54,058 nt of DNA, taken from Candidatus Pacearchaeota archaeon (GTDB lineage: Archaea > Nanobdellota > Nanobdellia > Pacearchaeales > GW2011-AR1). The notes below the pieces were generated by a model. The model saw nothing but the letters and a program-made list of their open reading frames with translations, searched no databases and had not been told where the DNA came from. The stretch is from positions 1 to 54,058 of the forward strand of contig JBDGRI010000023.1 in the NCBI GenBank assembly GCA_042218235.1, written 5' to 3'. The position numbers were made by a program, and so were the translations under genes. This document shows, piece after piece, positions 12,152 through 51,285 of the stretch. Positions within the stretch are counted from its first letter, which is position 1. Each line of letters opens with the position of its first letter.

Positions 12152-12670
12152 TTATAGAAAAGACGTCTGAGCGGAATATTTGTTATCGGCTTTTCTATGG
12201 ATGGAGGTCACTTTATGTCCAATGTGGCTAGATCTCATTCTTGTTCCGTTTTTTTGGTATGTTCTTGTGTCATAAGGCTGGAATCCTATTCTTGGGTCTT
12301 TGGCTACAGGGATATAAAAATCAAGTTCCTTGTTTTTAACAAAAGACAACAGTGTAGGCCCTTGGTTTAAATGTATTTCCATGTTGTTCCTCAAAATTTT
12401 GCCTTCAGAATCGTTTATGTATGTTCTCCCTGGTTTGCTGTGAATGTATTCGAGAAATATTTGATTCATTTCCTCTTCATTATTTCCAAGTGTTTTGGTT
12501 ATGTCGGTGTTTATATTCTCCTGAAACCATTCGTAATTAGGAATAAAAACTATCGCGTCTGATGGATCCTTGGTTTCGTTTTCTATTTTCTTGAACCTTT
12601 GTGTTTTCCAGTTTGGAAGATATTTGTAAACCGATCCTTTTCCCGTTTCAAAGTGGTCTATATTGTCCAT
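12152..12670 (-). CDS. hypothetical protein
   Basis: 172-aa ORF with no motif recognised. Confidence 0.45.
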   Translation of the reverse strand: MDNIDHFETGKGSVYKYLPNWKTQRFKKIENETKDPSDAIVFIPNYEWFQENINTDITKTLGNNEEEMNQIFLEYIHSKPGRTYINDSEGKILRNNMEIHLNQGPTLLSFVKNKELDFYIPVAKDPRIGFQPYDTRTYQKNGTRMRSSHIGHKVTSIHRKADNKYSAQTSFL

Positions 12671-12701
12671 ACCAAGAGGCTTCTATTAGGATTTTTAATT
12701 T

Positions 12702-13529
12702 TTATTCTTTTAGATTTTTAACGGCCTCATTGAAAATTTTTTCTAGATCTCTTCTTAAAATGTTTTTCCAGTTGACATTCTTTTTGTCTTTTAGGTATTC
12801 TGAGACTAAGTGATAACCTAGGGTATAACCTGTCCAAAAAGGGAATTCTTTATCCTGGTTGAAGAAGATTTTTATGTGGTATTTGAATCCTTTTTTCTCT
12901 AAGTAGGGACTTACTTTTCTGAGGTATTCTTTTGTTTTGCTTTTTGGAAAAACTTTTGTCCAGGGGTTTCGTTTCTTTCGGAAAACGTGTTCTTTGAATT
13001 TTTCGGCTAACCCCTCCGCTATAATGTTTCCTTTTACCTTGAGCGGATTTTTAGAAAACATCGAGTAATTTTTTGATAATGCATGAGCTAATTCATGAGC
13101 TACTATGTCTTTTAATGCCTTTTTCCAGTTTTTGGCTATTGTTGGCTGGATGATTATGTGTTTTCGGTGTGGTGTTAGGCCCATAACCCCTTCCATGTAG
13201 TCTTTTACGAACTTGTTTTTTTCGGGAATTATATAGACATAGATTTTTTCTTTTCCTATCACATTTGAGAGGTCTTTTAATGCTTCTGAAACGATTTTTT
13301 CCGCTTCATCGGGTTCAGGCTTTTCGAGAATTGTTTTTCTTTTTCCTTTAGAGAACCAATGATTCATAAAGGTCTTTAGATATTCCCTTTTCTTGAATCC
13401 AAAATATCCTTCTTCCGTTTTTGGAATTTCTCCTATAATGTATTCTTTAACTTTGTCTATGTCTTTTGAAGGACAATCTAGGAAGTTGTAGATTTCCGCT
13501 TTAGGGTTTTTTAGAGTTTTTTGTCTCAT
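12702..13529 (-). CDS. HExxH zinc-metalloprotease-like protein (DUF2268-like), paralog of 28025..28849
   Basis: 275 aa with the HELAH motif. Its C-terminal WTGYTLGYHLVSEYLK matches WTGYSIGYHLIKEYLK in the paralog. Confidence 0.55.
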   Translation of the reverse strand: MRQKTLKNPKAEIYNFLDCPSKDIDKVKEYIIGEIPKTEEGYFGFKKREYLKTFMNHWFSKGKRKTILEKPEPDEAEKIVSEALKDLSNVIGKEKIYVYIIPEKNKFVKDYMEGVMGLTPHRKHIIIQPTIAKNWKKALKDIVAHELAHALSKNYSMFSKNPLKVKGNIIAEGLAEKFKEHVFRKKRNPWTKVFPKSKTKEYLRKVSPYLEKKGFKYHIKIFFNQDKEFPFWTGYTLGYHLVSEYLKDKKNVNWKNILRRDLEKIFNEAVKNLKE

Positions 13530-47141: not shown

Positions 47142-47216
47142 TAGCGGGAAGAGGATTTGAACCTCTGACCTCCGGGTTATGGGCCCGACGAGCACTCCAG
47201 ACTGCTCCATCCCGCT
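47142..47216 (-). tRNA. initiator tRNA-Met (anticodon CAU), archaeal type
   Basis: The reverse complement folds as a 75-nt cloverleaf. It has an A1:U72 pair, three consecutive G:C pairs closing the anticodon stem (GGG/CCC), loop CCCAUAA and T-arm AGAGG-UUCAAAU-CCUCU. A TATA-like TAATTAGAAAA lies about 27 nt upstream. Confidence 0.85.
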
Positions 47217-47330
47217 TTACAATTTATCCAGAATTTTCTAATTAGATAGTAGTTTTCTCTTTTATAAAACTTACGAGGAAATGCGAATTTCTGCATAATC
47301 TTTAAATACTTCGTGGTTTTTGAAGCTTGT

Positions 47331-47990
47331 ATGTTATATCTAGGAATTGACGAGGCTGGAAAGGGGCCGGTTATAGGCCCGTTAGTTGTTTCTGGCTGTA
47401 TGGTCGATGATCAAAAATATGTTGGATTGGAAAATATTCGAGTTAGGGATTCTAAAGACTTGACTCTAAGGAGAAGAGAATTTATGTCAAATAAGATAAA
47501 AGAAGTTACAGATGACTATGAGGTAAAGGTTGTTTCTGCAGAAGAAATTGACCAAAATATGTCTTCTGGTGTGAATATGAATCAATTAGAGGCCAATAAA
47601 ATAGCAGAAATTATAAACAAGTTCAATGATGGTAGCGATAACATAAAGGTAATGGTCGATTGTCCTTCTATAGGGATTCGGAAATGGAAAGAACTTTTGA
47701 TGTCCAAGATAGACAATCTTTCTAATTTGGAAATCGTTTGCGAGCATAAAGCCGACAGAAATCATGTTCCTGTATCTGCTGCTTCAATACTAGCAAAGAG
47801 CGTGAGGGAGAAAGAAATGCAATCGCTTAAAGAAAAGTTTGGTCATGAGATAGGTTCGGGTTATGCATCAGATACCTCAACTTCGGATTTTGTGAAAAGA
47901 AATGCAGACAGACTTAAGGACCAGGGTCTTTTCAGGCAATCCTGGAAAACTTGGAAGAGGGCTAGTAAAGAGGTTGTGGATGAAAAGTAA
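47331..47990 (+). CDS. rnhB: ribonuclease HII
   Basis: LGIDEAGKGPVIGPLVV catalytic motif. The track ORF starts at GTG 47313, but ATG 47331 lies about 25 nt after CTTTAAATAC. Confidence 0.85.
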   Translation: MLYLGIDEAGKGPVIGPLVVSGCMVDDQKYVGLENIRVRDSKDLTLRRREFMSNKIKEVTDDYEVKVVSAEEIDQNMSSGVNMNQLEANKIAEIINKFNDGSDNIKVMVDCPSIGIRKWKELLMSKIDNLSNLEIVCEHKADRNHVPVSAASILAKSVREKEMQSLKEKFGHEIGSGYASDTSTSDFVKRNADRLKDQGLFRQSWKTWKRASKEVVDEK

Positions 47991-48017: not shown

Positions 48018-48374
48018 ATGGATAATTTTTGGTATAATCATAATGACTCATTTAGGTATAGGCCATTTACTCTAGAAGAGGCATACGAAATTCCGATAAT
48101 GCATGAAATTGCATTTACATTGAGCCATCATTCTGATAAACAATCTAATAAGCAACTTTTTATGATGTATGGTCTTTTTCATGGTCATCCATATATTGTT
48201 TCGAGAAAGGAAGGCATTTATCGAGAATTCATTAGAAATGAACCATTGTACATTTCTAATAAGTATGATCCTGGTGATGATTCTTTGATAAATATGTTTG
48301 TTTTTGATATTTGGAATAGAGACCATGTGAAACTGGGAAGATTCAGGCATGATCTCTTTTCAAAGCTAGATTAA
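48018..48374 (+). CDS. hypothetical protein
   Basis: 118-aa ORF. Confidence 0.4.
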   Translation: MDNFWYNHNDSFRYRPFTLEEAYEIPIMHEIAFTLSHHSDKQSNKQLFMMYGLFHGHPYIVSRKEGIYREFIRNEPLYISNKYDPGDDSLINMFVFDIWNRDHVKLGRFRHDLFSKLD

Positions 48375-48420: not shown

Positions 48421-51285
48421 ATGACTTATGTTAAAAAGTTGGTGATGAACGGGTTTAAGAGTTTTGCAAAGAAGACCGAGATTCCTTTTACCGGAGAGAT
48501 TAATGTCGTGCTAGGTCCTAATGGTTCGGGAAAGTCAAACATTATTGATGCTTTGTGTTTTGTATTGGGAAGGTTGAGTACAAAGTCAATTAGAGCTACA
48601 AAAGCAAGTAATTTGATTTTTATGGGAAGTCAGTCTGCTGGGGCGGCTAAAGAGGCTTCTGTGGAATTGATTTTTGATAATTCGGATAATACTTTTTCTT
48701 TGGATGCTAATGAGGTTTCCTTGAAGAGAATTGTTAAGAAAAATGGTCAAGGAATTTACAGAATTAATGGCGAAAATAAGACGAGACAAGAAATTGTTAC
48801 TCTTTTAGCTCAGGCAGGAATTGACCCTAACGGTTTCAACATTGTTTTGCAGGGAGAGATTCAGAATTTTGTTAAGATGACTCCTGACCAAAGACGTAAA
48901 GTTATAGAGGAAGTTTCTGGAATTTCAGTTTATGAGACAAGGAAGCAAAAGTCGATGAAAGAGCTTGAAAAAACGGACAAAAAGTTGAAGGAAGTTAGTG
49001 CTATTTTGAAGGAACGGACTTCTTATTTGAATAATTTGGAGAAAGAGAGAAAACAGGCTTTAAGATATCAAAAATTGCAAAAGGACTTGGAGAATTTGAA
49101 GGCTAGCGTGATTAATTCTGATTTGCAGGAAAAGAAGAAAGAAAAGGAAAAGATTGATGCGGATGTAGATAAGAAGAACAAGGAGATTTGGAAAGTTAGA
49201 GAAAAAATGTCAAAGTTACAACAGACGATTGACGATTACAAGAAAAAAGTAGATGAAATTAATTCCAATATAAAAAGTTCTACAGGGCAAGAACAAGAAA
49301 AGCTTAATCAAGAAATCGCTAATCTTCGTGCAGACTTGGCGGGATTGAATGTTAATAAAGAAAATGCCGAGAAAAAGTTGGCAGACAACAAGAAAAAACA
49401 ACAGGATTTGGATAATTCGATTAAGGATTCTCAGAAAGAGATTGATGAATTGAAGAAATCTTCAGACCCTAACAAAGATTCTGAACAGAAGAAAGAGTTG
49501 GAGAAAAAGAAGAACTTGGTAGATGATTTGGAGAAAAAGCGTAAGGATCTTTATATGGCTAAGACCGAGTTGAAAAGTATTGATAAGCGTCTGGATGATA
49601 AGAACAAGTCTTTACAAAGCTATCAAAGAGAGTCAGAGATTTTGACAAGCCAGATTGAGAAGGTTGAGGAAGGGCTTTATGACAGAAATACTAAAAAGGA
49701 AAAAATTGATTCCTTGAAGAAAAAGATAGAGGAAAAGAAAGAAGAGCTTGAACATGTCGATAAGCGTGAGAGAGAACTTGAAAAGCAGTCTATTTTGAAT
49801 AATTCAGAAATTGAAAAGCATAATAAGTTGATAGATAAGATTTCACAAATGGACACTTGTCCGACTTGTAAAAGCGATATTACTCAAGAGCATATAGACT
49901 CCATAAAGGCCGAGACTATGCCTCAAATTAATACATTGAAGCAACAGATTTCTGAAGGAGAGAAGGAAATGGAGGATTTGAAGCAGAAGAAGGAGCGTTT
50001 GAGGAACGAAATTGCTGAAATGCAAAAAGAAGTTTCTAAGCGGGACTCGGATTTGTCTAAATTAAAAGATATCGATGATAAGAAGGATAGGCTTAAGTCA
50101 ATACAAGCCAATATAAGTTCTGTTAAGAAAGAGATTCAGGATATTGAAAAGCGTAAGCAAGAATTACAGAAGACAGTTGAGGAAAATCAAGATGTTGAAG
50201 AGAAATACGAGACTGCCTTGGTTGAGTATCAAGACCTTTCGTCAAAGAGCAAGGAGAATTTGGATTCCGAAATTTCGTTCAAGCAGAAAGAGTTGGAGCG
50301 TTCACAGATTTCATTGAAACAGTTGAAGAGAGAGCAGGAAGAGCATGAAGAAGAGCTTTCGAAAGTTAATGCTTCCATCAAGGAGAAAAATACTTTGTTG
50401 GAACAGAAAAGGAAACAAGAGCAAGAATTGAGTAAGAAGTTTGATAAAATGATTAAAGAGCGTGATTCATATCAGGAAAAAGTTCGAGAGTCTGAGAGAG
50501 AGCTCCAGGATAAGAAGAATGAGGTTCATAATAAAGAGCAAGAAGTTAATAATTTGAAGATTGAGATTGCCAGGGTTAATGCTTCTGTCGAGAATTTGCA
50601 AGAAGAATTGAAACAATGCCCTAATGCTGAGATAATTTCAGGTAAAAAAGACAATTTGAAGAATCGTTTGGAAAAGACTAAAGACATGGTCTCAGGCATG
50701 GGAAATATTAATTTGAAGTCTTTAGAGGTTTACGATGAAGTTAAGAAAGAATATGACGAGGTTAAAGAAAGGTCGGATAAGATTGAGAAAGAGAAGGAAG
50801 GAATTATGAAGGTAATTGAGACGATAGACAGAAAGAAGAAGAGGGCTTTCATGAAAACCATGAAGTCATTGAACGAGGCATTTTCGAGGAACTTTTCGTT
50901 GTTAAGTTCCAAAGGAGAGGTTTATTTAGAATTAGAGAATAAAAAACAGCCTTTTGAGGGAGGTGTCGGTATTGTTGTTAGAACTGGCCATGGAAAGTAT
51001 TTCGATGCTACATCGCTTTCAGGAGGAGAACAGACTCTTGTCGCACTTTCGCTAATTTTCGCTATACAGGAGTATGACCCCTATCCGTTTTACATATTAG
51101 ACGAGATTGATGCAGCTTTGGACAAGAGAAACTCTCAGAGATTGGCGAATTTACTCTCAAAGCATATGCAGAAAGGGCAGTATATTCTAATTTCTCACAA
51201 TGATGAGACTATTGCAAGTGCTAACAATGTTTATGGAATAAGTATGCACGATGGCATCAGTAAAGTCGTCTCAATGGAAGTCTGA
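48421..51285 (+). CDS. smc: SMC-family ATPase with a central CxxC (zinc-hook-like) motif instead of an obvious hinge
   Basis: 954 aa with SMC-type heads: GFKSFAKKTEIPF..GPNGSGKSN, IVLQGEIQNFVKMTPDQRRKVIEEVSGI and LSGGEQTLVALSLIFAIQ...YILDEIDAALD. Continuous coiled coil flanks CPTC at residues 480-483. Confidence 0.75.
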   Translation: MTYVKKLVMNGFKSFAKKTEIPFTGEINVVLGPNGSGKSNIIDALCFVLGRLSTKSIRATKASNLIFMGSQSAGAAKEASVELIFDNSDNTFSLDANEVSLKRIVKKNGQGIYRINGENKTRQEIVTLLAQAGIDPNGFNIVLQGEIQNFVKMTPDQRRKVIEEVSGISVYETRKQKSMKELEKTDKKLKEVSAILKERTSYLNNLEKERKQALRYQKLQKDLENLKASVINSDLQEKKKEKEKIDADVDKKNKEIWKVREKMSKLQQTIDDYKKKVDEINSNIKSSTGQEQEKLNQEIANLRADLAGLNVNKENAEKKLADNKKKQQDLDNSIKDSQKEIDELKKSSDPNKDSEQKKELEKKKNLVDDLEKKRKDLYMAKTELKSIDKRLDDKNKSLQSYQRESEILTSQIEKVEEGLYDRNTKKEKIDSLKKKIEEKKEELEHVDKRERELEKQSILNNSEIEKHNKLIDKISQMDTCPTCKSDITQEHIDSIKAETMPQINTLKQQISEGEKEMEDLKQKKERLRNEIAEMQKEVSKRDSDLSKLKDIDDKKDRLKSIQANISSVKKEIQDIEKRKQELQKTVEENQDVEEKYETALVEYQDLSSKSKENLDSEISFKQKELERSQISLKQLKREQEEHEEELSKVNASIKEKNTLLEQKRKQEQELSKKFDKMIKERDSYQEKVRESERELQDKKNEVHNKEQEVNNLKIEIARVNASVENLQEELKQCPNAEIISGKKDNLKNRLEKTKDMVSGMGNINLKSLEVYDEVKKEYDEVKERSDKIEKEKEGIMKVIETIDRKKKRAFMKTMKSLNEAFSRNFSLLSSKGEVYLELENKKQPFEGGVGIVVRTGHGKYFDATSLSGGEQTLVALSLIFAIQEYDPYPFYILDEIDAALDKRNSQRLANLLSKHMQKGQYILISHNDETIASANNVYGISMHDGISKVVSMEV

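Follow-up and report, generated by a model that had tools for sequence, protein, structure and literature searches.

The gene smc, in a 54,058-nucleotide stretch of archaeal DNA (hereafter the window; contig JBDGRI010000023.1 of GenBank assembly GCA_042218235.1, Candidatus Pacearchaeota archaeon, order Pacearchaeales, class Nanobdellia), encodes an SMC-type ATPase that bears a CPxC motif at the tip of its coiled coil and has no detectable SMC hinge. Probably this protein is the only SMC of the organism, an ortholog of the Smc of the Smc-ScpA(B) complex in which a hinge of ~205 residues has been replaced by a Rad50 module of ~90–100 residues; the arms would be joined by zinc.

Heads and arms

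The heads of the protein are those of an SMC rather than of a Rad50, as evidenced by profile, structure and phylogenetic comparisons. A Pfam scan of the full protein places SMC_N over residues 3–947. NCBIfam scores are 571 bits for SMC_prok_A (TIGR02169) and 545 bits for SMC_prok_B (TIGR02168), against 167 bits for the archaea-specific SMC-related proteins (ASRP; model NF045487, cut-off 300 bits) and 78–143 bits for the Rad50 models (cut-offs 700–1087 bits). The best matches among solved structures are Pyrococcus Smc heads (5xei, 359 bits), Rad50 heads reaching at most 55 bits. Compared with reference sets drawn from genomes of the same class (20 each of hinge-bearing SMCs, Rad50s and hook-bearing SMCs), the protein scores 825 bits on the hidden Markov model (HMM) of the hinge-bearing SMCs versus 139 bits on that of the Rad50s. 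In a maximum-likelihood tree of the heads, which took in the class SMCs, hook-bearing SMCs and Rad50s and no reference ASRP sequences, the hook-bearing SMCs all fall into one clade inside SMC (100/100), which a very long branch divides from the Rad50s. The initial annotation, made from the sequence of the window, had described a 954-residue open reading frame (ORF) with SMC-like rather than Rad50-like heads. Both points are borne out, and the head motifs that it quoted are all found in the protein, namely GFKSFA...GPNGSGKSNIIDALCFVLG (residues 11–50), IVLQGEIQNFVKMTPDQRRKVIEEVSGI (141–168), LSGGEQTLVALSLIFAIQ (866–883) and YILDEIDAALD (891–901).

The fit to the class SMC HMM is collinear on both sides of the apex, residues 1–477 aligning with model positions 1–478 and residues 493–954 with positions 684–1164; 15 residues therefore stand where the hinge would take up ~205 positions. 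The arms, at ~305 residues each, are nearly of full SMC length, and the protein as a whole is ~200 residues shorter than a hinge-bearing Smc. The gene is most likely the ortholog of the canonical archaeal and bacterial Smc of the Smc-ScpA(B) complex and the organism's only SMC.

Absence of the hinge

No match to the SMC hinge (PF06470) was detected in a Pfam profile scan of the protein, nor, in profile searches for which controls matched as expected, anywhere in its own 789-kb, ~88% complete genome or in any of 61 genomes (42 genera) sampled from the order. The claim that the protein is hinge-less is upheld at all three levels. The hinge was found in 214 of 301 sampled genomes of the class, none of them from the window's order, which amounts to 214 of the ~247 genomes outside that order. 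This missing domain is the point at which the protein departs from the definition of the prokaryotic Smc family.

A Rad50-like module at the apex

CPTC occupies residues 480–483, at the midpoint of the protein as proposed, and supplies two of its only four cysteines (residues 46, 480, 483 and 733). The motif is highly conserved and no chance occurrence: CPxC is invariant in 120 of 120 clusters of the family, one apparent exception being an intein that shifts the position, and it is present in all 32 hook-type representatives obtained at 50% clustering as well as in all 45 tabulated long orthologs of the order (950–1013 residues, plus one intein-bearing ORF). Invariant residues in the close family are C480, P481, C483, K484, T488 and H491.

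Likeness to the Rad50 hook extends well beyond the two cysteines. A single 126-residue centre sequence searched against the PDB with phmmer returned only generic coiled coils; the best PDB match of a profile built from family residues 430–535 (alignment A1) is the Pyrococcus furiosus Rad50 hook 1L8D (E 0.0095), with CPlCKskiteeH standing opposite CPVCGRELTDEH. Aligned by hhalign with the apexes of 21 DPANN Rad50s, A1 matches in exact register over 104 columns (99.4%, E 2.3e-21), versus 7.6% for a control segment of hook-free Rad50 arm. After removal of the 15-residue Cys core each flank still aligns in register, the upstream one at 94.4% with a score of 32.7 (controls 9.5 and 14.1) and the downstream one at 94.0% with a score of 30.4 and a weaker margin (controls ~20). 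Ungapped identity of the flanks to Rad50 apexes is 15.7% versus 9.5% in the control. Apexes of SMCs and Rad50 hooks share the motif [IV]xx[LM][DE]xCPxC[KQ]xx[IV][TS]x[ED][HY][IK]xx[IV], and the apex cores of several SMC lineages (e.g. LENCPICKQxVxxxHKxKIS) are strikingly close to those of class Rad50s (LENCPTCFQNVHEEHKNKIS). In the same way, a profile of the SMC apexes matches class Rad50 hooks at E-values of 1e-6 to 1e-16. The apex of the window protein is 17% identical to that of the Rad50 encoded in its own genome, and no preference for Rad50s of the own order is seen (19.0% vs 20.2%); a near-identity of the SMC hook to the hook of the lineage's own Rad50, or a pairing of the two, thus gains no particular support.

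Because coiled coils inflate scores, reversed-sequence controls were added to sliding windows of 60 residues, for which the noise floor along the arms is 5–12 bits. SMC-specific signal covers residues 1 to ~330 and ~620 to 954; on the ascending arm it is clear to ~330 and weak, though in register, to ~435. No family-specific signal rises above the reversed controls in the distal third of the arms, and Rad50-specific signal appears only in windows spanning residues 436–525, in hook register, with 38–39 bits versus 1–4 bits in the reversed controls. A 91-bit match of the Rad50 HMM over residues 333–647 had made a Rad50-like stretch of 300 residues a candidate; this was rejected, the reversed controls narrowing the signal to ~436–525.

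On this sequence evidence we regard the apex module as homologous to the Rad50 hook together with its adjoining coiled coil, ~90–100 residues in all with ~45 on either side of the hook, which extends the earlier proposal of a Rad50-like CPxC hook. The simplest reading is that this segment was transferred from a Rad50, an origin for which the alignments argue more firmly in the core and upstream flank than in the downstream flank.

The predicted structure agrees with a hook-type apex. AlphaFold2 (AF2), run on the full-length family alignment, gives a model of mean predicted local distance difference test (pLDDT) score 75.7 in which helices 169–475 and 489 to ~790 fold back on each other, with helix breaks arranged in pairs (218–238/731–765, 345–355/608–612 and 418–425/589–591). 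Continuous helices 426–475 and 489–588 meet at a non-helical turn (476–488), so that the AF2 model has a helical hairpin at the apex and no globular domain there, as the hinge-less description had implied. Modelled alone, the apex reaches a pLDDT of 95.8, and Foldseek returns both chains of 1L8D as the two best PDB folds (template modelling (TM) score 0.77–0.80, root-mean-square deviation 3.4 Å), a predicted likeness that we take as supportive only.

Distribution in the order and class

All 61 genomes of the order encode a single SMC ortholog each. Within the window's family, 44 of 48 genomes yield strong matches to the apex profile, in ORFs of ~950–1020 residues, and genomes of the family and order that the profile missed also have CPxC at the midpoint of the protein, with diverged flanks. 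Weak matches (E 1e-6 to 1e-16) are ORFs of 660–830 residues in other orders, and the 14 of these that were fetched (664–698 residues) are all Rad50-type proteins with a midpoint CPxC. Among the 150 best matches in a representative library of 1.84 billion proteins, 102 carry a hinge, 32 carry CPxC and 16 carry neither. Throughout the order, then, the long-form orthologs have the hook architecture as a fixed trait.

In some hook-bearing SMC genes the Walker A region is followed directly, at query residue 37/38, by an insertion of ~525 residues. It occurs in family members P0040, P0126 and P0129 and in order genomes G321, G323, G335 and G336, with ORFs of ~1490–1514 residues, and in P0040 it contains intein and LAGLIDADG domains (PF14890, PF14528). 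Lengths of ~1650–1717 residues are also seen among hinge-bearing SMCs of the class, in several cases. Separately, ORFs of 809–838 residues in hinge-bearing genomes (G227:C3, G261:C3, G277:C3, G232:C19, G177:C1 and G257:C9) match the SMC-apex profile at E-values of 1e-6 to 1e-11; these may represent Rad50s of greater length or a different ATPase with a hook.

Predicted partner proteins and a separate Rad50

The search for a kleisin and Mre11 proposed with the initial annotation located ScpA, ScpB, an Mre11-like gene and a separate Rad50 in the same genome, all on contigs other than that of smc. ScpA (C1:16700–17896) matches PF02616 at 42 bits, above the Pfam cut-off, and ScpB (C32:32562–33152) matches PF04079 at 118 bits and TIGR00281 at 92.4 bits (cut-off 89.2). 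Across the order ScpA was found in 58 and ScpB in 60 of the 61 genomes, and each in 28 of 28 high-quality genomes. The ScpA of this genome is 399 residues long, its kleisin core lying between charged, low-complexity N- and C-terminal extensions of ~95 and ~70 residues; other ScpAs of the order have 240–370 residues.

The separate Rad50 has a CPTC hook of its own, and the Mre11-like gene lies ~1.1 kb upstream of it with an opposite-strand ORF (12482–13372) between them. In 12 of 14 other genomes of the class an Mre11-like gene stands directly upstream of Rad50 on the same strand. In NCBIfam comparisons this 687-residue ATPase scores 163.5 bits as an ASRP versus ~147 bits as a Rad50, all below cut-off. 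The conserved Mre11 linkage and PDB matches exclusively to Rad50 heads decide against an ASRP, and on these two grounds we consider the protein a genuine Rad50. Since a DPANN Rad50 can score slightly higher as an ASRP, automated naming of such Rad50s may be unreliable. The window SMC is a third entity beside Mre11-Rad50 and ScpA/ScpB.

Proposed function

The protein most likely functions in a Smc-ScpA(B) complex whose arms would be joined by a shared zinc ion, zinc binding being predicted. As in Rad50, one Zn2+ would hold two protomers together at their arm tips, each CPxC contributing two of the four cysteines around it, and ScpA would bridge the ATPase heads and so close the ring. The Walker A and B motifs, Q-loop, signature and H-loop are intact, and the binding and hydrolysis of ATP there would power the entrapment of DNA and the extrusion of loops by which the chromosome is organised. 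Hinge-specific DNA contacts, if any, would be dispensable, or other parts of the complex would have assumed them.

Counter-evidence and alternative explanations

Several observations weigh against the interpretation of a hook-bearing Smc ortholog. Both SMC equivalog cut-offs are missed (571 vs 729 bits for TIGR02169 and 545 vs 567 for TIGR02168), as is to be expected with ~200 model positions missing. PF04423 (Rad50_zn_hook) is not reported at E ≤ 1 in the full-length Pfam scan, and in a scan of the centre alone it reaches 22.1 bits with a cut-off of 24.3. The Foldseek E-values are weak (0.012), and prefoldin hairpins score almost as well. The ScpA of the genome lies far under the NCBIfam equivalog cut-offs, and the role of ScpB in the archaeal complex is described as disputed in PMC7055376.

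To these are added shorter SMCs of 781–871 residues, which have intact Walker A and LSGG motifs and no CxxC. They come from 13 of the 61 genomes sampled, belonging to families f81, f82 and f83 and to part of f2. Examples are G304:C31:5900-8700 (L123), G315:C3 (L124) and G302:C9 (L128), and representatives are P0140 and P0144–P0146. In G304, the clearest case, positions 408–559 of the hook-family model are absent; this gap of ~150 central residues is symmetric, taking the distal ~75 residues of each arm, equal to the Rad50-like module plus ~25–30 residues on each side. Apex motifs of the short forms differ by lineage (IDDLIRQNKIK in f2, ENVCLIIKE in f81), and in a tree rooted with hinge-bearing SMCs the short forms occupy two to four positions, f81 being sister to all others. 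ScpA and ScpB matches are present in all 13 of these genomes. The sequences of the short forms suggest that the hook may be dispensable, and they raise more sharply the question whether an SMC needs a dimerisation domain at its apex at all. They are compatible with either of two histories, repeated loss of the hook module or loss of the hinge first and insertion of the hook later, between which parsimony does not decide. It is possible, and we suggest it only tentatively, that the SMC apex in this order behaves as an exchangeable cassette, a Rad50-derived hook having taken the place of the hinge and the distal ~75 residues of each arm having gone in two to four sub-lineages or never having been inserted in the earliest-branching one.

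An unlikely alternative for the apex itself is convergence, CPxC having arisen after simple loss of the hinge, without transfer from Rad50, and perhaps marking a tight turn instead of a zinc dimerisation site. The motif is short, PF04423 stays below threshold, the downstream flank scores moderately above its controls, flank identity is low (~16%), and hookless forms exist in the same order, one of which (f81) branches first. Against convergence stand the shared motif reaching well beyond CxxC, the hhalign match at E 2.3e-21 with its low-scoring control, the in-register alignment of each flank alone at ~94% with identity above the control, and the reach of the SMC-apex profile to class Rad50 hooks. 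A different main task for the protein, namely DNA-end tethering, repair or defence against foreign DNA instead of chromosome folding, seems to us quite improbable. It would suit a hook derived from a repair protein, the reduced genomes of DPANN archaea that often re-use parts, and the service of SMC-like complexes in defence reported in PMC10586767. It is opposed by the single SMC ortholog in every order genome, co-retained with ScpA and ScpB, by the persistence of a dedicated Mre11-Rad50 pair, and by a housekeeping neighbourhood (RNase HII, tRNA) with no adjacent nuclease or defence gene.

Two further explanations concern the identity and integrity of the gene. ASRPs and Rad50 are known archaeal SMC-superfamily proteins with zinc hooks according to PMC9389158, and the window protein does score on models of both, so that, instead of an SMC ortholog, it might be a Rad50 paralog or an ASRP (ClsN/Sph) with a different role. 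This is highly improbable given that these scores lie far below their cut-offs and below the SMC scores, that the class HMMs and the SMC clade of the head tree (with its limit to class sequences and no reference ASRPs) favour SMC, that both arms are collinear with hinge-bearing SMCs, and that this is the sole SMC-type gene in genomes keeping ScpA and ScpB. An assembly artefact, with SMC and Rad50 reads joined into a chimera, would be conceivable in a 51-contig, ~88% complete metagenome bin; we consider it next to impossible, the same collinear architecture being present in over 120 independently sourced protein clusters, of which some lie on contigs above 500 kb, and in dozens of species genomes, some of them in 1–6 contigs. 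Near-identical words of the gene also occur in sequencing runs from four studies, and the real Rad50 elsewhere in the genome has an apex only 17% identical. An Smc ortholog with a Rad50-like apex remains our preferred explanation; none of the three outcomes that the initial annotation named as refuting its reading (a hinge picked up by profile search, cysteines that vary among orthologs, heads grouping with Rad50) was observed.

Gene features and genomic context

Table 1. Features of smc in the window and of the Mre11-like and Rad50 genes elsewhere in the genome (contig C48).
Feature	Residues	Position	Strand	Evidence or remark
smc, hinge-less and hook-bearing SMC	1–954	48421..51285	+	complete, 954 codons plus stop, ATG start, uninterrupted ORF
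ABC ATPase head, N-terminal half	1–168	48421..48924	+	SMC_N and SMC_prok_A matches; Pyrococcus Smc head 5xei, 359 bits; invariant columns
Walker A, GPNGSGKS	32–39	48514-48537	+	within N-terminal head half
Q-loop, Q144	144	within 48421..48924	+	N-terminal head half
Ascending coiled-coil arm of SMC origin	169–435	48925..49725	+	sliding-window and class HMMs, AF2
Rad50-like apex module (distal coiled coil, hook, distal coiled coil)	~436–525	49726..49995	+	
CPTC (C480-P481-T482-C483), presumed zinc ligands	480–483	49858..49869	+	nucleotides TGTCCGACTTGT
Non-helical 13-residue turn containing CPTC	476–488	49846-49884	+	AF2
Descending coiled-coil arm	526–790	49996..50790	+	SMC-specific signal back from ~616–660
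ABC ATPase head, C-terminal half	791–954	50791..51282	+	Pfam, NCBIfam and PDB matches, invariant columns, sliding windows
Signature, LSGGEQ	866–871	51016-51033	+	
Walker B / D-loop, FYILDEIDAALD	890–901	51088-51123	+	
H-loop, H926	926	within 50791..51282	+	C-terminal head half
Mre11-like nuclease		C48:11322-12485		best matches are Mre11 models, sub-threshold
Separate Rad50, own CPTC hook	687 from MKLKK start	C48:13583-15730		arms ~200 residues each

The window sits on contig C16 of the genome assembly. Around smc lie genes for RNase HII and a TrmB-type regulator together with hypothetical genes, one of them small; a survey of this neighbourhood found no Mre11, ScpA or ScpB gene adjoining smc, in agreement with the initial annotation, and no other kleisin, nuclease or defence gene. 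Upstream lie the RNase HII gene (47313–47990, +) and tRNA-Met(cat) (47142–47216, −), and a 118-residue ORF without family match (48018–48374) stands between RNase HII and smc.

Close relatives of the protein, from Pacearchaeota or Nanoarchaeota, are publicly named 'chromosome segregation protein SMC'. This name hides the difference between hook and hinge, and the scores also fall under the curated equivalog cut-offs. Words near-identical to the gene were found in metagenome runs from salt lakes and hypersaline lakes from the same four studies, one run holding 98% of the sampled words and the others 6–22%, which suggests that the lineage lives in saline settings.

Comparison with known systems

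What the SMC hinge does besides holding the arms together, for instance in DNA binding, as a DNA entry gate or in communication with the heads, is a long-standing question. Prior evidence that the hinge can be replaced comes from engineered chimeras, namely Smc(Zh) and Rad50 with a MukB or Smc hinge. A whole archaeal order whose single Smc has, over a long span of evolution, worked with a Rad50-type hook and near-full arms, ScpA and ScpB being kept, would be a natural experiment showing that the hinge fold is dispensable. Structural and single-molecule studies would also gain an SMC that is compact and presumably closed constitutively, and the exchange of a module from one branch of the SMC superfamily to another would have a dated example.

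The protein resembles canonical Smc (TIGR02169/TIGR02168; Pyrococcus Smc, PDB 5XEI, 5XNS and 4I99) in its heads, ATPase motifs, arm length, single copy and accompanying ScpA/ScpB, and differs from it in having a CPxC hook with a Rad50-like distal coiled coil where canonical Smc has its hinge (PF06470) of ~205 positions. With Rad50 (1L8D, PF04423) it shares CPxC-x3-[IV]-[TS]-x-[ED]-[HY], ~45 residues of flanking coiled coil per side and the predicted hairpin (TM score 0.77–0.80), whereas its heads are not those of Rad50, its arms measure ~305 residues as against ~200 in the Rad50s of the lineage, and no Mre11 is linked to it. ASRPs (ClsN/coalescin, Sph1/2; NF045487) are likewise archaeal SMC-superfamily ATPases, with a zinc hook, as predicted for the window protein, instead of a hinge, and are treated as a separate family in PMC9389158; in contrast to them, the window protein matches their model at 167 bits in five fragments, well under the cut-off of 300, aligns collinearly with true Smc and is accompanied by ScpA and ScpB. 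Natural SMC-type proteins without a hinge also include the 'hinge-less' variants of marine Actinobacteria, which Sussfeld et al. 2025 (PMC12153180) describe as lacking a CXXC motif; these are bacterial and without CXXC, whereas the present proteins are archaeal with a conserved CPxC, and their nearer analogue is the short hookless forms of the order.

In full-text literature searches, Smc proteins with a zinc hook turned up only as laboratory constructs, and none was described from nature. Bacillus subtilis Smc(Zh), engineered to carry the hook of Pyrococcus furiosus Rad50, is reported to support normal growth and to retain the same constraints on arm length (PMC5344682, 2017), and therefore a hook-on-SMC design can work with ScpAB; the reverse swap, Rad50 with an SMC hinge, is reported to be functional in yeast (PMC6969161). 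Smc(Zh) and the window protein have the same design in common, an SMC in its heads and arms that ends in a Rad50-type hook. The former is a bacterial laboratory construct with a distant archaeal hook, whereas the latter occurs naturally as a fixed trait of an archaeal order, and its hook is similar to those of DPANN Rad50s. The hook-for-hinge SMC described here is a natural, lineage-wide version of a swap that the searched papers present only as a laboratory construct.

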